This document shows positions 21,257 through 29,008 of a DNA stretch of 29,332 nt, in pieces. The DNA is taken from positions 1-29,332 of the forward strand of contig CAYNFZ010000002.1 of the NCBI GenBank assembly GCA_964396725.1, in the 5' to 3' direction. The notes beneath the pieces are model-generated. The model saw nothing but the letters and a program-made list of their open reading frames with translations, was not told the DNA's origin and did not search any database. How positions within the stretch are numbered: the first letter of the stretch is position 1; each line of letters opens with the position of its first letter. Source of the DNA: an uncultured Pseudomonadales bacterium. GTDB taxonomy: Bacteria; Patescibacteriota; Microgenomatia; UBA1400; CAYNFZ01. The position numbers and the translations under genes are program-made.

Positions 21257-22284
21257 GGAGTCGGAGAAGTAAGGTGGAGGCGGAAGAAGGAAAGGTCGCG
21301 GGAGACGACGGTGTTCCAGTTGGGCTGGAGATTGTGGTCGGCGTTGGGGTAGGTGTAGTAGGTGACGTCTAGTAACGGTTGATCCTGATCGTCGGTGAGA
21401 TCGGTTAATGTCTGGGCTAATTCGTCGGACCACTGGAGGGGAACGGCGTCGTCTTGGCCGCCTTGGTGAATTTGGATGGGAGCGGTGATTTGGTCGAAGT
21501 AACTGTGTATAGAGAAGAGATCAGTGTCGTAGTCTTGTTCGAATTCGGCGAGGGATTTTCTGAGCGCTTTGCCGTGGTCATCGAATTCGTCGGTGTAGTA
21601 GAGGATGTTGTAGGGGAAAGGTTTGCTAACTGGTGCCCAGAGAGTAGTGGGGTAGGGCTGACCGGTGATTTCGAGAACTGAGAGGGCAATTTGGCCGCCG
21701 TTGCTGTGACCCCAGAGGAAGATATTGTGAGGATCGATGTAATCTAGAGTTTTGACGGATTCAATAAGAGTGATGACGGTGACTGGTTTTTGAAGACGAG
21801 CGGCATAAGTGTTGATGTCGGCTGGATCTGAATCACCGTAACCGGCGAAATCGGGAGCAAGGGTGATGAAACCATTACGAGCAAAAACGGCGGCGGCGTT
21901 TTGGGTACCAACTCCGGTCTGGTAGATTTCAGGATCGATGAAACCGCGAAGCATGATGACTACCGGGGTGATGGTATCGGCGTAATCTTGGGGAAGATTG
22001 ATTTGGCCAGTGATGTGTTTACCTTCGGAGATGAAAGTAAATTGGTAGGCGGTGAATTGGGGTTGTTTGTCGATGATACCGATGATTTCGATAGGACTGG
22101 GGGAGATGGTGTGGGTGGCGAGGTTGTCGAAAGTGTATTCGTCTAGGGGGGTAGGTTTGGCTTTTTGATCGGTAAGGGGAGAAGTGATGGAAGGTCGAGG
22201 GGAGGATCGAAAGTACCAGATAGAAATACCAACTATACCAAGGAGGCTGAAGAAAGCGAACAAAAGAAAAAGTTGTTTGAGCAC
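21253..22284 (-). CDS. Membrane-anchored alpha/beta hydrolase (S9-like)
   Basis: APDFAGYGDS, nucleophile elbow WGHSNGG, GGQDDAV (Asp) and ADHN (His). N-terminal TM helix; GTG start. Confidence 0.88.
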   Translation of the reverse strand: MLKQLFLLFAFFSLLGIVGISIWYFRSSPRPSITSPLTDQKAKPTPLDEYTFDNLATHTISPSPIEIIGIIDKQPQFTAYQFTFISEGKHITGQINLPQDYADTITPVVIMLRGFIDPEIYQTGVGTQNAAAVFARNGFITLAPDFAGYGDSDPADINTYAARLQKPVTVITLIESVKTLDYIDPHNIFLWGHSNGGQIALSVLEITGQPYPTTLWAPVSKPFPYNILYYTDEFDDHGKALRKSLAEFEQDYDTDLFSIHSYFDQITAPIQIHQGGQDDAVPLQWSDELAQTLTDLTDDQDQPLLDVTYYTYPNADHNLQPNWNTVVSRDLSFFRLHLTSPTP

Positions 22285-22394
22285 TCTAGCTATATGTAGC
22301 TGTTAATGAGGTGCAGGAAGGAGCGGGTTTATTTTAGCAAGAGAAACAAGATAAAGCGGCCGAAGTTACTAGCAGTTGGTATACTAAAAGGTTA

Positions 22395-22946
22395 ATGGAG
22401 TACCATACACTGGAGTTGTGCGGATTAAGGCGGGAGTTGCCACTGGTGTATGTGGCGAAGAAAACTCGACTGGCACAGTGGTCGATGCTGGGAGATGTAG
22501 AGCTGGTGGATAAATTGGCTGATGAGTTGGAAAAGATTTTGAAACAATTTAAGTTTGAGTATTTGGTAGCTCCTGAAGTCAGGGTGTTGCCCTTGGTGCA
22601 TGGAATAGCTTTAAGGTTGGGTCAAAAAACATTTGTAGTTTGTCGAAGATCGGTTAAACCCTATATGGTTGATCCGGTAATACTTAAACCACTGCCCCAC
22701 TTTCCCAAACATGTGGCGCAAATGGTGATTGATGGTAGAGATGTTAAGTTGGTAGAGGGGAGGCGGGTGGTGGTGATTGATGATGTGGTATCAACGGGGG
22801 TAACGATGAGGATGATGACAAAATTGATGGAGAAAGTAGGGGCGAAAGTGGTGAAGTTGGTGGGGGTGATTAAGCAAGGAAAGCAGTTTGATGATTTGGC
22901 AGAAATGATAAATCTGGGAGAGTTACCGATTTTTAAAGATGTGTGA
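22395..22946 (+). CDS. Type I phosphoribosyltransferase (adenine PRTase-like)
   Basis: PRPP-binding loop VVVIDDVVSTGVTM. N-terminal LCGLRRELPL pattern of APRT-like proteins. Extended -10 TGGTATACT at 22377-22385. Confidence 0.88.
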   Translation: MEYHTLELCGLRRELPLVYVAKKTRLAQWSMLGDVELVDKLADELEKILKQFKFEYLVAPEVRVLPLVHGIALRLGQKTFVVCRRSVKPYMVDPVILKPLPHFPKHVAQMVIDGRDVKLVEGRRVVVIDDVVSTGVTMRMMTKLMEKVGAKVVKLVGVIKQGKQFDDLAEMINLGELPIFKDV

Positions 22947-22953
22947 GTGTGGC

Positions 22954-22982
22954 TTGACTTTCGGGGATATAAGCGTCAAAGT
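22954..22982 (+). promoter_or_regulatory. Weak putative sigma70 promoter for the nucleosidase/BMP operon
   Basis: TTGACT (22954-22959), 17 nt, CAAAGT (22977-22982). The -10 deviates at its first base. Confidence 0.4.
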
Positions 22983-23026
22983 GAATGGGTAACAGGTAAA
23001 TACCTCTTTCCTGGAGAGGAAAATAA

Positions 23027-23077
23027 ATGAATAACAGGAAAAATATTTTGGTTTGTGTTGTATTTGTGACCCGCTAG
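23027..23077 (+). CDS. Putative leader peptide, 16 aa
   Basis: MNNRKNILVCVVFVTR*, with a GGAGAGGA SD upstream. The stop codon lies in the loop of the terminator hairpin. Confidence 0.5.
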   Translation: MNNRKNILVCVVFVTR

Positions 23078-23090
23078 AGGCGGGTTTTTT
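23068..23090 (+). terminator. Intrinsic terminator in the 5' leader of the nucleosidase gene
   Basis: GACCCGC-UAGAG-GCGGGU followed by U-tract (T run 23085-23090). Confidence 0.85.
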
Positions 23091-23228
23091 GATGGGAAGA
23101 GGAGTACTTTAACAAGTCAAGCTAAGGATGGGTACTGGCTTGCTTGGGGGCGATGAGACCAGGATATGATCGTGGTCTTTTTGCCCCGAAGCAAGAATGG
23201 TTGGGGCTTAGTTCATGGGAGGTTAACC

Positions 23229-24173
23229 ATGAAACGCTTTGCTTACGGTGTGTGGATTTTGGTTGTAGTGGCGATGCTGACATTAGCATCGGTGGGAGGC
23301 GTAGTGTTGAGTCAGGAAAGTCGGCTGCTGGACGACACGCCGCGGTTGGCAGTGATAAGCGCTTTCGATTCTGAATTGCAGTTACTGCTAGCTGAAGCTG
23401 AGATTGATGAAGTTCATACCCTCTATGGAGTGTCGTACCACGTAGGGCGCCTTCGAGGGAATGATGTGGTGATGTTTTTGTCGGGCGTGAGCATGGTCAA
23501 CGCAGCGATGACAACCGAGCGGGCGCTGAATAATTTCAACGTGGATCGGATTCTGTTTTCTGGCATCGCCGGAGGGGTGAATCCGGAGCTGAATATCGGG
23601 GATGTGGTGATTCCGGTTCAGTATGGCCAGTATTTGGAAGCGTACTTTGCTCGGGAGATTGAGGGAGAATTTATGCCTCCCGTGTGGTGGACTCCGGAAT
23701 TTCCAAACTACGGGATGATGTTCCCCAGCTCGGTGAGCGTGATTGATCTGGAAGCTGAGGCCCCCAACACTTACCAAGAGCAGTTCTGGTTCCCGGTGGA
23801 CGAAGAGATGTACGAGGTAGCCTCTTCGTTGGATGTGGATTTGGATCAATGCACGGCAGATGGGGTGTGCTTGAGTGTCGATCCGGTCCTGGTGGTGGGT
23901 GGTAACGGGGTTTCCGGCCAGGCGTTCGTAGATAATGCCGAGTTCCGGGAATTTACCTTTAACACTTTTGGGGCCAATGTGCTGGAGATGGAAACGGCCG
24001 CGATTGCCCAAGTGGCGGCTTCTCATGGGATTCCATACCTGGCAGTCAGGTCACTAAGTGACCTGGCAGGTGGAGGTGAGGGGGAGAATGAGATCGGCAC
24101 CTTTTTCCAACTGGCCTCGGATAACTCGGCAAAAGTATTGCTGGCCTTTTTGGAGGCCTGGTCGGAAATGTAA
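23229..24173 (+). CDS. Exported MTA/SAH nucleosidase-like protein (PNP_UDP_1 family)
   Basis: AVISAFDSEL, SGVSMVNAA, FSGIAGG, IGDVVIP, GVSGQAF, EMETAAIAQV, RSLSDLAG. Sec signal MKRFAYGVWILVVVAMLTLA. Start reassigned to 23229 (GGAGG SD). Confidence 0.88.
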   Translation: MKRFAYGVWILVVVAMLTLASVGGVVLSQESRLLDDTPRLAVISAFDSELQLLLAEAEIDEVHTLYGVSYHVGRLRGNDVVMFLSGVSMVNAAMTTERALNNFNVDRILFSGIAGGVNPELNIGDVVIPVQYGQYLEAYFAREIEGEFMPPVWWTPEFPNYGMMFPSSVSVIDLEAEAPNTYQEQFWFPVDEEMYEVASSLDVDLDQCTADGVCLSVDPVLVVGGNGVSGQAFVDNAEFREFTFNTFGANVLEMETAAIAQVAASHGIPYLAVRSLSDLAGGGEGENEIGTFFQLASDNSAKVLLAFLEAWSEM

Positions 24174-24180
24174 ATCCGAG

Positions 24181-24212
24181 AGAGTTGGGGCAGAAGTATT
24201 TGTTCCAACTCT
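24181..24212 (+). other. Intercistronic stem-loop
   Basis: AGAGUUGG (24181-24188) pairs with CCAACUCU (24205-24212), extended by GGCAGA/UUUGUU wobble pairs. No U-tract follows. Confidence 0.5.
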
Positions 24213-24251
24213 AGATTCTTTCGTATCTGAATGAACGAAATGGAGAATGAG

Positions 24252-25469
24252 ATGAAACGCAACTGGTGGACTGTAGTTGTTTTGGTGGCAGTGATTATGT
24301 CTGCCATGGGGGTAATGGCCCAAACGGATGAGTTTGTGTTTGGGGTGGTGTTGGTTGGTCCGCGCAATGATCATGGCTGGAGTGAGGCGCATTTCGTGGC
24401 GGGTGAGTATGTGGAAGAACTGGTTGAAGATACTCGCATGGTCTTTTTTGAAAGCCTAAACCCAGCGGATGCTCCGGAAACCACACTGGAGCAGGTGGTG
24501 GAAGAAATGATTGCGGAAGGAGCGCAACTGATCTTTACTACCTCGGATGAATTTGAAGAAGACACGCTGGCGGTGGCTGAGAAGTATCCTGAAGTGCTGT
24601 TTGTGAATATTTCAGGGGATGATGCCCTAACTGGTGAAGCTCCCGAAAACCTGAGTAACTTGATGGGAGCGATGGAATGGGGCAAAGAGATCGCCGGATG
24701 TGCTGCGGCCTTGGCCACTGAAACTGGGAAGATCGGCTATTTAGGACCGCTGATTAACTTCGAGACCCGGCGATTGGCTTCGAGTGCGTATCTGGGAGCC
24801 CGCTACTGCTACGAGAATTACCGGGGGTTGGATCCGGATGAGCTGGAATTCACAGTAACCTGGATTGGGTTCTGGTTTAACATCCCCGGCTTTACCCTGG
24901 ATCCAACTGAGGAGACCCAGCGTTTCTATGACCAAGGAACGGATGTGGTGATTAGTGGCATTGATACCACTGAAGCCCTGGTGGTCGCGGGGCAACGGGC
25001 CGAAGAAGGTGATGCTGTCTGGGCCGTCCCCTATGATTTCGAAGGAGCCTGTGGCGAAGCTCCTGATATTTGCTTGGGTGTCCCCTACTTTAACTGGGGG
25101 CCTGGATATACGCGTCTGGTGGAAGATGCTATGTCTGGAGACTGGGAGCAGAGTTGGGTTTGGGATACGCCCGACTGGGATGGCCTGACAGATAACGATA
25201 AGACTGCTGTAGGCTGGTTCAGCGGGGGTGGCTTGGACGAAGAGCAGCTATCCCAGATTGACGAGTTCATCTCTTTCCTGGCCGAGCAAGACTCTGGGAA
25301 TATCGTCCCGGAAACTCTTGATGATTTTGGTTTGGGCTTGTGGGTTGGGCCGCTGAACCTTCAAGATGGAACCGTGCTGGCTGAGGAGGGGGAAGTGGTG
25401 TCGGCGCGCGACGTCTGGTATCTGCCGCAGTTACTGGCGGGTATGACGGGTGATAGTTCGGCACAGTAA
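24252..25469 (+). CDS. BMP-family (PnrA/TmpC-like) purine-nucleoside-binding protein
   Basis: VLVGPRNDHGWSEAH, LIFTTS, KYP.V.F...SG, GKIGYLGP, WIGFWF.P, DVV...IDT. Sec signal with no lipobox Cys. Start reassigned to 24252 (GGAG SD). Confidence 0.92.
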   Translation: MKRNWWTVVVLVAVIMSAMGVMAQTDEFVFGVVLVGPRNDHGWSEAHFVAGEYVEELVEDTRMVFFESLNPADAPETTLEQVVEEMIAEGAQLIFTTSDEFEEDTLAVAEKYPEVLFVNISGDDALTGEAPENLSNLMGAMEWGKEIAGCAAALATETGKIGYLGPLINFETRRLASSAYLGARYCYENYRGLDPDELEFTVTWIGFWFNIPGFTLDPTEETQRFYDQGTDVVISGIDTTEALVVAGQRAEEGDAVWAVPYDFEGACGEAPDICLGVPYFNWGPGYTRLVEDAMSGDWEQSWVWDTPDWDGLTDNDKTAVGWFSGGGLDEEQLSQIDEFISFLAEQDSGNIVPETLDDFGLGLWVGPLNLQDGTVLAEEGEVVSARDVWYLPQLLAGMTGDSSAQ

Positions 25470-25489
25470 TAAGCTTGATGATAAATAAC

Positions 25490-25547
25490 GGGGAGAGACA
25501 GCTGAGTCTGGCAACAGGCTTATGACTTGGTTTCTCCCCTTTTTCTT
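25490..25547 (+). terminator. Terminator-like long hairpin after the BMP gene
   Basis: GGGGAGAGAC (25490-25499) pairs with GUUUCUCCCC (25530-25539), inner CUG(GCAA)CAG GNRA hairpin, then UUUUUCUU. Confidence 0.7.
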
Positions 25548-25569
25548 GGAGTGAAGGTGGTGGGGTACA

Positions 25570-27081
25570 ATGATGGGAATGAAAAAGATATTGAGTGGGA
25601 GGGAAAAGTGGGGATGGATACTGCTGGTGATTGTAGGTTGGTGGTTGGTGACGGTGCCGGTGACGGATGCGGATCTGGGGTGGCATTTGATGACGGGGAA
25701 GTATGTGTGGCAGATGAAGGCGATACCTAGAGTTGATGTGTTTTCGTATAGTTTGCCGGGCCATTCATGGGTGGTACATTCGTGGTTTTATGATGTGATT
25801 TTGTGGGGTATGTATAGTCTTGGGGGAATGTGGGGAGTGGCAACTTTTCTTGAGTGGTTGGTGGTTGGGGCGGTGGGAGTGATGTATTTGATTGCACGAG
25901 AGTTGGTGAGGGATAAGTGGGTGGCTCTTTTGGTTTTGATAATGGTACCGGCAATGATGGAGTTTGTGGGTTTGCGAAATCACGGGGTGACTTTGCTGGG
26001 GCTGACGGTGGTATCGTGGTTGTTTGTAAGGAATCAAGAATCGAACAAAAAAGAAAAGTCTTGGAACGCATGGCTGAGGGAAAGTGGGTATTGGATACTG
26101 TTGCCGACGTTTTGGCTGTGGGCAAATATGCATGCTGGAGTGGTGATGGGTTGGGGATGGTATGGAATGTGGATAGTGACGGAGATGATGGTGTGCTGGT
26201 GGAAAGAAAAGCGAGTGAAGTGGTGGGAGGTGAAGCGAAAGCTGGGGGTGGGAGTGGTTTTGATGGGAGTGAGTTTGGTGAATCCATATGGTGTGAATAT
26301 TGTGCGGTTTGCGCAGAGTTTGGCTGCGAGTCAAGCTAGTAAGTTGTACAACCAAGACTGGTTGCCGTTGTTGTCGAGCCGATTGCCGAGGGAAACGATT
26401 GGGTTGCGCTGGGGACTGGTATTGATGGTGTTATTGGTGGTGATGGCGGTGAAGGAAAAATGGAGAGAGAGAATATTGGTATTGGCGAGTCTAGGAATGG
26501 CGTTGCTCTCCGTGCGGTATAGTTTGTTGGTGTTGGTGGGATTGTTGCCGATGATTCCCGTTGTAGTAGAGGAAATGCTAGATAAAGTAAGGTGGGTAGC
26601 GAAGGAAAAGCGGAGAGGGTGGTTGGTGTTGGGAATACTCACGGTTTTGGTGGGAGGAAATATGGATGGAGTAAAAAGAGGAATGTGTGCAGCGGGATCG
26701 AACGAATGTTTGGCTAGGGAGGGAAGTTTTCCATTGGGGGCAGTTGAGTATTTGAAAAAGATGGGGGGGGAGTTGGAAATTGTGAATCATTATACCTGGG
26801 GAGGATATTTGATGTGGCAATTACCCCGAGCTAAGGTGTTTATCGATGGGCGGATGGACAACTTCGAGGTGGATGGAAGAGCGTGGATCGAAGTGTTTGC
26901 GGATATTGAGTCGATGCGGCCAGGTTGGGAAAAGTGGCTGGAAATGAAGGGTGGAAACGTGGTGTTGATACCGAGTGATTGGTCATTGGGGAAAGTTTTA
27001 GTCGATAGTGGAGAATGGGGGGTGGGATATGAAGATAAAATAAGTGTGGTACTGGTGAAAAATGAGGTGGTAGATGATTGA
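25570..27081 (+). CDS. Polytopic membrane protein, GT-C-fold glycosyltransferase-like
   Basis: TDADLGWHL.TG in the first outer loop, W..HSW.YD, LWANMHAG, VNPYG, HYTWGGYL.W, VFIDGR.D. About 11 or more TM segments. Confidence 0.7.
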   Translation: MMGMKKILSGREKWGWILLVIVGWWLVTVPVTDADLGWHLMTGKYVWQMKAIPRVDVFSYSLPGHSWVVHSWFYDVILWGMYSLGGMWGVATFLEWLVVGAVGVMYLIARELVRDKWVALLVLIMVPAMMEFVGLRNHGVTLLGLTVVSWLFVRNQESNKKEKSWNAWLRESGYWILLPTFWLWANMHAGVVMGWGWYGMWIVTEMMVCWWKEKRVKWWEVKRKLGVGVVLMGVSLVNPYGVNIVRFAQSLAASQASKLYNQDWLPLLSSRLPRETIGLRWGLVLMVLLVVMAVKEKWRERILVLASLGMALLSVRYSLLVLVGLLPMIPVVVEEMLDKVRWVAKEKRRGWLVLGILTVLVGGNMDGVKRGMCAAGSNECLAREGSFPLGAVEYLKKMGGELEIVNHYTWGGYLMWQLPRAKVFIDGRMDNFEVDGRAWIEVFADIESMRPGWEKWLEMKGGNVVLIPSDWSLGKVLVDSGEWGVGYEDKISVVLVKNEVVDD

Positions 27082-29008
27082 TAAGCTGTTGCTAGCCGGG
27101 GTGGGAGTAGGGTTGTGGATGATGGGAGGTTGGTGGTGGAGTCAGCTGTGGACTAAGGGAATGAAAAGTGTAACGGGTTGGGAGAAGTGGGGTTGGGGGT
27201 TAGTGTGGTCCTTTTTGGGTCTGCCGTGGTTGGTATATATGATGCAGCAATTGGTAGGACTTAGAATTGGAGAGGCGACAGTGTGGGTAATAATGATTAG
27301 TTGGAGTGGGGTGGCGGGTTTGATGGTGAAAATGCAGGGTGGTGAGGTGGTGCCGAGAGTAGGATGGAGGAAATGGAGATGGTTGGAGATGGCGGCGTTG
27401 GGTATAGTGGTGGTGTTTGGAGTGATGGCGGTGATGAAGGTGTGGGTAGAGAATAGGCCCTTGGTGGGAGCCGATAGTGGCTTTTATTTGGAAAAGAGTG
27501 CGGAGGTGGTAAGAACGGGAGAGGTAAGGGGGGGGTTTGATAGGAGTGTAGTGCTAGTCATGCCGGTGGTGATGTCTATACTGATGGCCGTGTCGGTGGA
27601 AGCTGGGCTGAAATGGATGATAGTGGTAGAAGTGGTGATGTTGGGGGTGATGGTGAGGATGGTGACAAAGAGGGTGATAGAGGAAAAGTGGGCGGTGGTG
27701 GCGATGTTGCTGGCTTTGGTGTCGTGGGGTCTGTGGCGGATGAGTTGGGATTTGCATGCAATGATGTGGGGAATAATGGGGCAACTGATGGTGGTGTGGT
27801 GGTTGTTGGTGGGCTTGAAGGAACCAAAGAAATGGCGGTGGGTACTGATGATGACTGGTTGGTTTGGAGGAGTGCTGTTTAATCTTCATGGAATCGTAGC
27901 TTTTAGTAGTGTGTTGGTTTGGGTGAGTTTGGCGGTCTGGCTAGGTTGGCAGACAAGATCAAGGTGGTGGGGGCGGTGGAGGCGAGTTGGAGGTGGGTTG
28001 GTGCTGGTGAGCGTGATGTATGTGGTGGCGGGTTACCCCCTAGTATGGAAGGGTTGGGAGTCGGCGGTGCAGGGAGTGGTGTGGCCGTTGAAACAGAAGT
28101 TTGGGCGAGTAGCAGACGTGGAAAAGAAGAGTGAGGCGGTGGTAGCGGCCACGAGTGGGGCGAAGGTGGAGATACAAGCAGCTGGTTTTGAGGGTTTGGG
28201 ACAAGAAAAAAAAAGTTGGAATTGGGCAGATTTTCCGCTGAAAAAGAGAGAGTTTTTGAATCAATACCATTGGAGCTGGTTGGTGGTGGTGGGGTGGGGT
28301 TTACTGATGGTAAGGAAGGGTGTGGATAAGAAGTGGGTGAAGAAAGTGGAAGCAGGAAGTGTGGTTTTGATTGGATTGGTGACTTTTTTGTTGACTCAAC
28401 AAGAGTTTTTAGGCTTGAGATGGTATAGCGCTAGATTTGTGATGATGTTATTACCGTGGTTGGTGATAATAGTTGGAGTGGGGCTGGCGGGGATAGAAAA
28501 ACAGTGGAGAAGGAAACGATTGAAGAGGTGGCGATGGTGGATGGCGATATTGGTGGCTGGACTGGTGATGGCTGAGTGGCGGGTGACGAGTGAGTTTTTG
28601 AAGGGATACAGAGCTACTATCGATGATGGTGAGTACGAATTTTACGGGCAAATTGGTGAGATTGTGGATGGGGAAGCACCTGTTTATGTGGCGAGTACGC
28701 AGCCGAGGTGGGCACCGGGATTGAATCCTAATGTGAATGTGGAGGTGGTGCGAGCGGATGCGATGTGTCAAGAAAGAAGTGTGAGAGACAAGATCGGAGA
28801 GGAGAGGTGGAATTTGGGTAGGGCGTTTTGGCAAGGCACCGACGAGATGGTGTCGGTGGCGATACTGGATGAATTGAGTGGAGGTGGAGATTATTTTGTG
28901 GTAGCGGATGGGAGAAGTCAGTGTGTGAAGGTAGAGTTGTTTGAAGGGGAGGAGTATGTGGTGTTGAATCGATACGGCGAGTTGGTGTTGGTGAAGAGAG
29001 TTAGATGA
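27074..29008 (+). CDS. Polytopic membrane protein, probable GT-C-like
   Basis: Many TM helices, a GADSGFYL acidic loop motif and a soluble C-terminal domain. Overlaps the upstream gene by 8 nt. Confidence 0.6.
   Translation: MIDKLLLAGVGVGLWMMGGWWWSQLWTKGMKSVTGWEKWGWGLVWSFLGLPWLVYMMQQLVGLRIGEATVWVIMISWSGVAGLMVKMQGGEVVPRVGWRKWRWLEMAALGIVVVFGVMAVMKVWVENRPLVGADSGFYLEKSAEVVRTGEVRGGFDRSVVLVMPVVMSILMAVSVEAGLKWMIVVEVVMLGVMVRMVTKRVIEEKWAVVAMLLALVSWGLWRMSWDLHAMMWGIMGQLMVVWWLLVGLKEPKKWRWVLMMTGWFGGVLFNLHGIVAFSSVLVWVSLAVWLGWQTRSRWWGRWRRVGGGLVLVSVMYVVAGYPLVWKGWESAVQGVVWPLKQKFGRVADVEKKSEAVVAATSGAKVEIQAAGFEGLGQEKKSWNWADFPLKKREFLNQYHWSWLVVVGWGLLMVRKGVDKKWVKKVEAGSVVLIGLVTFLLTQQEFLGLRWYSARFVMMLLPWLVIIVGVGLAGIEKQWRRKRLKRWRWWMAILVAGLVMAEWRVTSEFLKGYRATIDDGEYEFYGQIGEIVDGEAPVYVASTQPRWAPGLNPNVNVEVVRADAMCQERSVRDKIGEERWNLGRAFWQGTDEMVSVAILDELSGGGDYFVVADGRSQCVKVELFEGEEYVVLNRYGELVLVKRVR

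Follow-up and report, generated by a model that had tools for sequence, protein, structure and literature searches.

We report that a 29.3-kb contig (C2, CAYNFZ010000002.1; hereafter the window, i.e. the whole stretch of DNA that was analysed) from an uncultured member of the Patescibacteria (candidate phyla radiation, CPR) carries two adjacent genes of Anaerolineae descent, predicted to encode an exported MTAN-like purine nucleosidase (MTAN, 5'-methylthioadenosine/S-adenosylhomocysteine nucleosidase) and an exported binding protein of the BMP family. The horizontal origin of both genes is well supported. Taking the locus as a whole we consider it probable, while leaving real room for doubt, that this imported front-end pair serves purine salvage: a two-gene island of ~2.3 kb from an Anaerolineae-like member of the Chloroflexota would have been placed behind a native phosphoribosyltransferase (PRTase) gene and its leader, in a Microgenomates-type genome without a de novo purine pathway. 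The genome comprises 1.31 Mb in 162 contigs and has an estimated completeness of 97.6%. For the substrates, the ligand, export and anchoring, and the route of uptake we infer the most likely solution from family, fold, gene fusions and synteny.

Origin of the gene pair

The best homologs of the nucleosidase are 65-73% identical to it and those of the BMP protein 72-78%; all named ones among the closest of either belong to Anaerolineae or Thermoflexus. In a nucleosidase tree of 78 rows the window protein falls in a starred clade together with Anaerolineae and Thermoflexus sequences, the copies from CPR genomes of the same order (G008, G003 and G025) are placed elsewhere, and forcing it to group with these copies costs 131 log-likelihood units (approximately unbiased, AU, test, p = 1e-9). 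The BMP protein is sister (97, starred) to P0002, which is 78% identical, within a 23-row Anaerolineae clade (99, starred), and the contig encoding P0002 shows the order hrcA-grpE-dnaK-dnaJ ... thioredoxin / BMP-ATPase-permease-permease that is also seen in a named Anaerolineae genome. Five CPR BMP proteins form a separate, distant clade (100, starred), and identity between the window protein and two CPR-type BMP proteins (from G008 and G025) is 25-30%. A sixth CPR protein, that of G493, is found in a different Anaerolineae subclade, and we therefore count at least two independent acquisitions from Anaerolineae by CPR beside this PRTase family. Hence, the horizontal acquisition that had been suspected from the sequence is borne out, both genes being nested in Anaerolineae clades and neither branching with its CPR homologs; moreover, the N-terminus 'AQxDEFVFG...', likened in the original prediction to that of Anaerolineae proteins, corresponds to the consensus found among the homologs from this class.

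These data also bear on the possibility that the pair is an ordinary, vertically inherited CPR split ABC (ATP-binding cassette) system with its permease genes elsewhere. PRTase genes with a nucleosidase and/or BMP gene do occur in other members of the order and class, and a gene could be missing from a genome in 162 contigs. However, for the nucleosidase a CPR clade fails the AU test, the BMP protein resembles the Anaerolineae type far more than the CPR type and is remote in the tree from the five clustered CPR proteins, third-position skew of the pair is unlike that of native genes, and the permease family PF02653 was neither found in the window genome nor seen above threshold when eight other CPR genomes with such modules were searched (see below). 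We regard this explanation as very improbable.

With respect to possible donors, exported MTAN-like enzymes constitute a large family, present in Anaerolineae and Comamonadaceae in operons with BMP-type ABC genes. The order in three Anaerolineae operons (L016-L018) is nucleosidase-BMP-ATPase-permease-permease, three further loci (L004, L006 and L098) have BMP-ATPase-permease-permease, and in Comamonadaceae the nucleosidase gene precedes those for the ATPase and permeases. No remnant of an ATPase gene was detected 3' of the window BMP gene (blastx/blastn), and DNA similarity to the donors ends at the gene ends. Hallmarks of mobility were likewise not found: there are no flanking repeats, the window matches no RNA family, tRNA included, and no integrase occurs among the eight open reading frames (ORFs) between 19962 and 29008 (Pfam). 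The literature yielded nothing specific on transfer of purine genes between CPR and Chloroflexi.

Residence in the host genome and selection

The order PRTase, leader, nucleosidase, BMP, terminator is as originally described, and the locus is composed of the following features.

22395-22946, plus strand: PRTase gene (PF00156, E = 1.3e-13; NF005592)
22947-23093, plus strand: conserved leader (motif, covarying hairpin, short ORF, intrinsic terminator)
23135-23200, plus strand: long imperfect hairpin in the 5' region of the nucleosidase gene (folding compared with shuffles)
23229-24173, plus strand: predicted exported MTAN-like nucleosidase, 314 aa (PF01048, E = 7e-44)
24181-24212, plus strand: intergenic hairpin between the nucleosidase and BMP genes (14-pair stem)
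24252-25469, plus strand: predicted exported orphan BMP protein, 405 aa (PF02608, E = 1.3e-9; alternative ATG at 24231)
25490-25547, plus strand: terminator closing the pair (GC-rich stem 25490-25539, followed by a U-tract)

The genome is strongly strand biased, with a median absolute GC skew per contig of 0.45 (all 162 contigs) and an AT skew near zero; extreme G/C strand disparity has already been published for the Microgenomates order UBA1400 (PMC7143001). Third-position GC skew is 0.80-0.87 in six native neighbour genes, regardless of coding strand, and the PRTase gene (0.83) is like these. The corresponding values for the nucleosidase and BMP genes are 0.31 and 0.24, within the lowest 3-5% when 727 ORFs from the whole genome are ranked, and about half-way between the donor relatives (-0.12 to -0.22) and the native genes. 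The base counts on which a loss of local skew had been proposed are exact (15 G and 15 C at 24841-24900 versus 28 G and 2 C at 27601-27660); the loss is sharp at third positions and modest in bulk composition, where the GC skew of the island, 0.255, corresponds to the 8.5th percentile of 2.3-kb windows genome-wide and is a weak signal alone. From 25500 onward the skew is back at 0.58-0.70.

When substitutions were polarised using the sister sequence and outgroups, the BMP branch displayed 36 C>T, 15 C>G and 8 C>A changes against 4 T>C, 1 G>C and 3 A>C, a net loss of 51 C in 102 changes, and the nucleosidase branch a net loss of 63 C in 241 changes; the sister and donor branches are balanced. 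Loss of C on the plus strand is the bias of the host in the correct orientation, which argues that this DNA has long been replicated here and is not a chimera. The same spectrum on the G-rich strand (C>T, C>G, C>A) may help to account for strand disparity of the UBA1400 type. Other low-skew stretches or ORFs were noted in the genome (C8, 2000-8500; C13, 2500-13200; C68, 4500-7500; C41, 4000-7000), some of which may be rRNA or highly conserved genes and others additional foreign islands.

Could an Anaerolineae fragment have been misjoined into a CPR contig during assembly or binning? Sequencing depth is low (~3-7x), the Logan contigs are short and, among those listed, no single contig spans 23051-23061, a coverage gap at ~5x with no sign of a break. 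Against such an artefact stand the substitution spectrum just described, the signal-peptide regions and flanks, which grade into native skew, and the occurrence of the same order (PRTase, leader, nucleosidase, BMP) in G025. Moreover, in Logan contigs from four salt-marsh runs depth is equal over flanks and island, the right junction is bridged in two of these runs, and no loose ends or alternative joins were seen at the island. We consider a misjoin highly unlikely.

Both genes are clearly under purifying selection. The nonsynonymous (pN) and synonymous (pS) values are 0.24 and 0.84 for the nucleosidase and 0.14 and 0.74 for the BMP gene, and all family-invariant residues are kept (40/40 and 83/83, respectively). 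This is relevant to the alternative in which a truncated ABC operon of Anaerolineae, captured by chance, has left two genes that no longer function, are decaying and are heading for loss. Such a remnant would agree with the presence of just the first two of the five donor-operon genes, with the missing cognate permease and with the lack of any ATPase trace downstream. It is at odds with synonymous sites near saturation at a pN of 0.14-0.24, with the retained invariant residues, with reading frames that are intact despite heavy stop-creating C>T pressure, with a ribosome-binding site for each gene and a terminator closing the pair, and with the recurrence of permease-less BMP proteins and nucleosidase-BMP fusions in at least eight other CPR genomes; decay is accordingly a quite improbable explanation.

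The putatively exported MTAN-like nucleosidase

The nucleosidase matches PF01048 (7e-44) and scores 85.1 bits with TIGR01704 (MTA/SAH nucleosidase; cut-off 73.8), and MTAN crystal structures match it with E-values down to 1.8e-22. Residues E49, M254-E255 and S277-D278 are invariant in an alignment of 12 sequences and line up with the motifs seen in solved MTANs; we take them to be the equivalents of Glu12, Met173-Glu174 and Ser196-Asp197 in Escherichia coli MTAN, with the catalytic roles of these. The ATG is preceded, at a distance of 7 nt, by GGGAGG. Taken together the protein sequence suggests an exported MTAN-like purine nucleosidase, and both its substrates and its export are proposed on this ground.

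Both proteins of the pair start with MKR followed by a hydrophobic stretch of 19-24 residues without Cys, i.e. the features of the Sec-type signals that had been predicted, and the aligned homologs all carry a signal peptide; signal peptides were judged from sequence features and alignment with homologs. The BMP protein has no Cys in its first 40 residues and thus no lipobox. The strong acidity noted earlier is likewise present (pI 4.05 for both; net charge of the mature proteins -33 and -61) and is a family trait, since the Anaerolineae homologs are equally acidic. That an exported nucleosidase would be unusual stands in so far as the export signature is there; as an oddity it does not, given the large family heading BMP-ABC operons in Anaerolineae and Comamonadaceae. 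Among the sampled genomes of the phylum it is rare, being found in 2 of 400 besides that of the window. The Borrelia literature treats exported MTANs as exceptional (PMC7557402), and we found no study characterising the exported MTAN-like family and nothing specific on exported or periplasmic nucleosidases.

The BMP protein and its ligand class

The BMP protein scores 37.9 bits with PF02608 (cut-off 24.1), over profile positions 5-131 only, i.e. the N-terminal half. An identical database product (P0001) has 405 aa, which fits the start at 24252, where GGAG precedes the ATG; starting at the in-frame ATG at 24231 would lengthen it to 412 aa. The structural model (predicted local distance difference test, pLDDT, 92.9) has only BMP-family proteins as top fold matches. 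In sequence searches against the PDB the sole matches were 3s99 (7e-21) and AtzT (2.5e-14), at 22-24% identity, and these also lead the fold matches by a wide margin, with template modelling (TM) scores of 0.90 and 0.88 (Foldseek E 3e-23), as compared with 0.70-0.76 (E 1e-13) for the nucleoside binders PnrA/BmpD and up to 0.79 when Lbp is included. AtzT binds guanine (110 nM) and adenine (2.5 uM) but not GTP, and 3s99 contains adenine (PMC6834077).

The AtzT contacts scored were the two stacking aromatics, Ser97, Glu165, Asn218 and Asn220. HMMER alignments, mapped by eye, place in the window protein a W (HGWS), S (TTS), E (FET) and W (GFW) at contact positions, and a D at the Asn220 position, as in 3s99, but a Gly at that of Asn218. 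Sequence and fold matches suggest that the BMP protein belongs to the purine-base-binding branch (3s99/AtzT), an assignment that is new here and from which the ligand is predicted. Of the earlier proposal that it binds purine nucleosides for uptake, the purine-binding family holds; a free base is more likely than a nucleoside, as the base binders 3s99 and AtzT are closest.

While surveying homologs we noted that Anaerolineae-type BMP proteins of 650-720 aa (P0024, P0043, P0080, P0096, P0101, P0107, P0108, P0114, P0115 and P0117) are tandem BMP-BMP proteins; BMP matches of ~700 aa were considered as nucleosidase-BMP fusions and rejected, each chain having two BMP domains. The P0107 gene lies beside four PF02653 permease genes.

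The PRTase and its gene neighbourhoods

The PRTase belongs to the NF005592 subfamily, 'adenine phosphoribosyltransferase' (PRK07322), with 168.6 bits (cut-off 143) over residues 1-181 of 183; going by this subfamily label its base would be a purine, annotated as adenine. The nearest named homologs are from Gottesmanbacteria, Woesebacteria and Patescibacteria (59-62% identity), with metagenome matches up to 70%. Its distribution is patchy (5 of 61 genomes of the order and 33 of 400 of the class), and its neighbours are always purine-related: purF, pyrG/prs, guaA/xpt, nucleosidases or BMP proteins. Specifically, it heads de novo purine operons on the P0250 contig (where it is 70% identical) and in L107, L121 and L122. 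The P0250 contig has, as the window, a similar alpha/beta hydrolase gene upstream (compared by gene table only), and a putative BMP gene is likewise listed in the gene table beside P0122.

In at least nine CPR loci the PRTase gene is followed by a nucleosidase and/or BMP gene. The arrangements are prs-pyrG-PRTase-[nucleosidase-BMP fusion]-rplS in G008, pyrG-PRTase-BMP-rplS in G493, PRTase-BMP in G461, PRTase-nucleosidase-BMP with the leader after the PRTase gene in G025, and PRTase-[nucleosidase-BMP fusion]-guaA-xpt in G447; exported scavenging genes also follow the PRTase gene in G610 and in the Saccharibacteria-like contigs L045 and L096. Fusions of nucleosidase and BMP are present in three genomes, G008, G447 and G286, the last with a Pro/Thr-rich linker. 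This recurrent synteny in other Patescibacteria upholds the proposed link to PRTase salvage. What is new here is that a PRTase gene with an exported nucleosidase and/or BMP gene recurs in Patescibacteria, and that the PRTase-leader cassette heads purine operons in relatives; in short, scavenging genes fill a regulatory slot which in some of these relatives is occupied by genes for synthesis. The module itself is an old, patchy CPR theme, and only the two exported genes of the window genome are recent imports.

Its chromosomal site varies between lineages, as judged from G008 and G493, which carry it between pyrG and rplS; in the window genome pyrG, rplS and yraN are directly adjacent (C37, 8507-10810). 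The G447 fusion gene (L146; G447:C24, 4756-6783, minus strand) has an in-frame TAG separating a 152-aa N-terminal lipoprotein part from the remaining 494 aa, which could be due to a pseudogene, a sequencing error or read-through. In the two Saccharibacteria-like contigs a tRNA gene is located directly upstream of the PRTase-nucleosidase pair (L096:3-75 and L045:53-125), possibly an integration hotspot, and another tRNA gene was predicted elsewhere in L082 (Rfam E-value search).

The leader and other RNA elements

The leader, ~150 nt long, is conserved in five genomes, in two of which it precedes purF and in two an exported nucleosidase gene. Its copies are at 22947-23093 in the window, L013:396-564, L107:9553-9710, L122:2044-2198 and L115:146-331 (minus strand). 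It lies 3' of the PRTase gene in G025 (nucleosidase gene next), in L107 and L122 (purF next) and in L115 (contig end). In the window it comprises the motif AACAG(C)GTAAATA (AACAGCGTAATA; 22991-23002), a covarying hairpin (23003-23019) whose pairing is retained despite changes on both sides, and a short ORF (23027-23077) that runs into an intrinsic terminator (23068-23090). With this leader and terminator between them, the PRTase gene and the pair are not simply co-transcribed. We regard the leader as a candidate purine-related attenuator or riboswitch on the basis of these sequence features. The leader has no Rfam match, and no riboswitch family was obtained for the whole window at the gathering threshold, nor for the leader and 11 related loci in E-value mode.

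Between leader and nucleosidase gene, the folding energy of 23090-23232 is -60.6 kcal/mol (z -6.66; equalled by 0 of 200 shuffles); the genome has no second copy of the 23135-23200 hairpin or of other flanking hairpins, and hence gives no evidence of a miniature inverted-repeat transposable element or attachment site. For 24170-24255 the folding energy is -25.7 kcal/mol (z -3.45), and the hairpin there (24181-24212) is probably an mRNA-stability or partial-stop element; we do not call it a full terminator because a strong U-tract is missing after the stem. By comparison, the hairpin and U-tract at 25490-25547 (-32 kcal/mol, z -3.25) end the pair, as had been suggested. A sigma-70 promoter scan of 22000-25800 found none; a TTGAC box 3' of the PRTase gene was dropped as a promoter candidate, since it overlaps the TGA stop codon in relatives.

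Purine genes and permeases in the host genome

Genes purF/N/D/L/Q/P and pyrD/F/E were not found in the window genome (tblastn), and PurL is present in 1 of 60 genomes of the order. The tblastn survey revealed an N-terminal Prs fragment at a contig end, and phosphoribosyl pyrophosphate (PRPP) should therefore be available. Profile searches identified one Bmp gene and one PNP_UDP_1 gene in the genome.

As the original prediction had it, neither a permease nor an ATPase gene adjoins the pair, and no cognate permease was found elsewhere: PF02653 was not detected in the window genome in a profile search whose control recovered the family in 12 of 14 known genomes, nor were NCS2 and NCS1 permeases found in this genome. 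PF02653 was also not found in G008, G025, G286, G493, G461, G003, G029 and G610, which are CPR genomes with such modules (91-100% complete), and in G447 it was seen only as a sub-threshold fragment. Downstream of the pair, 25570-29008 encodes two native polytopic membrane proteins of large size (503 and 644 aa), rich in G, V, W and M on account of the strand bias; checked as possible novel importers, they gave no Pfam family at E<=0.1 and nothing usable at E<=1.

Proposed function

On the salvage explanation, the exported enzyme, an MTAN-type N-ribosyl hydrolase, would cleave 5'-methylthioadenosine, S-adenosylhomocysteine, 5'-deoxyadenosine and perhaps adenosine outside the cell and thereby free the base; the exported BMP protein would capture free adenine or guanine, rather than nucleosides, at the cell surface; the base would enter by a route other than a cognate ABC permease; and the cytoplasmic PRTase would trap it as nucleotide with PRPP. 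MTANs release adenine and the PRTase is annotated as acting on adenine, and we infer that the three genes converge on a purine in its free-base form, adenine being the likeliest. Of the donor operon just the front end would have been kept, and it would have replaced, or been added to, an older CPR nucleosidase/BMP module beside the PRTase gene, a module that is often fused.

Several observations weigh against this reading. The nucleosidase reaches 138.8 bits with NF004079, the MTAN equivalog describing a cytoplasmic enzyme of ~230 aa, which is below the cut-off of 169, and an insertion, ~45 residues long and containing a conserved pair of Cys, sets it apart from solved MTANs; it may accordingly act on a different range of substrates, and we file it as MTAN-like, not as a canonical MTAN. 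In the BMP protein the equivalent of AtzT Asn218 is a Gly. No permease was found, which leaves the uptake step without an explanation, and lacking a lipobox the two proteins might be released instead of held at the surface; the CPR-type BMP proteins of G493, G461 and G447 do carry lipoboxes. Finally, the nearest relatives of the nucleosidase and of the BMP protein come from different operon types, so that a single transfer is not shown.

The exported proteins might also be functional in a role other than uptake, with the BMP protein as a surface sensor (like Bacillus subtilis Med) or binding another ligand, and the nucleosidase destroying signals derived from methylthioadenosine or S-adenosylhomocysteine, or toxic nucleosides, at the host surface. 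A BMP protein without transporter partner would suit such a role, the structural matches include the regulatory lipoprotein Med (2hqb; TM 0.81), which has the BMP fold, and AtzT illustrates that ligand shifts are possible in this branch. The tight, recurrent linkage to the purine PRTase gene as well as to prs, pyrG, guaA and xpt, the occurrence of the same leader ahead of purF operons in relatives, the fusion of enzyme and binder in three genomes and the apparent conservation of purine-stacking and polar contact residues nevertheless speak for purine salvage, and we judge a role unconnected with uptake to be unlikely.

Comparison with known systems

Borrelia exports the MTANs Bgp and MtnN, which are thought to supply transportable adenine (PMC7557402). 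The B. burgdorferi system of Bgp/MtnN and BmpA-D and that of the window are alike in purine auxotrophy, in exported MTAN-type enzymes with signal peptides and in purine-related binders of the BMP family, and the catalytic residues are conserved in the window nucleosidase. They differ in that the Borrelia Bmp proteins are lipoproteins that bind nucleosides (BmpD with adenosine, 6shu), whereas the window BMP protein is nearest to base binders and has no lipobox; furthermore, the window nucleosidase has the ~45-residue insertion and is a member of a large environmental family of its own, and the window genes are adjacent, fused in some CPR relatives, and horizontally acquired.

With the periplasmic purine-base binders 3s99 of Brucella melitensis and AtzT of Pseudomonas sp. 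ADP (PMC6834077) the window BMP protein appears, on the mapping by eye, to share the aromatic sandwich and the Ser/Glu/Asp contacts; it is ~50 residues longer, 22-24% identical and has the Gly for Asn218, and unlike in those organisms, which have ABC permeases, none was found for it. The Anaerolineae/Thermoflexus operons comprise the closest relatives and agree in the nucleosidase-then-BMP order (L016-L018), the type of signal peptide and the acidity, whereas the window genes are without the ATPase and both permeases, bear the strand bias of the host and stand behind a CPR PRTase gene and leader. The CPR-type modules, including the fusions in G008, G447 and G286, link the three functions to the same PRTase family and have no above-threshold permease; their BMP proteins form a divergent clade of their own and are mostly lipoproteins or fusions, in contrast to the separate, non-lipidated proteins of recent Anaerolineae origin encoded in the window.

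Implications

Orphan BMP proteins in Patescibacteria that are under selection, and sometimes fused to an enzyme, imply an importer yet to be found or a role other than transport. We suggest, tentatively and with more doubt than conviction, that Patescibacteria possess a permease-less surface 'purine harvester', in which an exported nucleosidase and a base binder, fused in some lineages, would feed import pulled by the PRTase, and whose slot behind a purine-related leader, one that in other lineages would drive de novo synthesis genes, has been refilled from Anaerolineae at least twice (window and G493); this would make Anaerolineae candidates for physical partners or hosts of the salt-marsh CPR. 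The locus further constitutes a clean and datable inter-phylum transfer from Anaerolineae to CPR, for which the strand bias provides a built-in clock while also excluding an artefact of assembly. As regards possible hosts, the repeated descent from Anaerolineae is no more than a lead. The nucleotide supply of CPR, which lack the synthesis pathways and mostly also recognisable transporters, is a standing question, and this locus offers a testable three-part candidate, an adenine-releasing enzyme, a purine-base binder and a PRTase, that gains its weight from recurrence across the phylum, fusions of enzyme and binder, the lack of any ABC permease found and a leader shared with purine operons.

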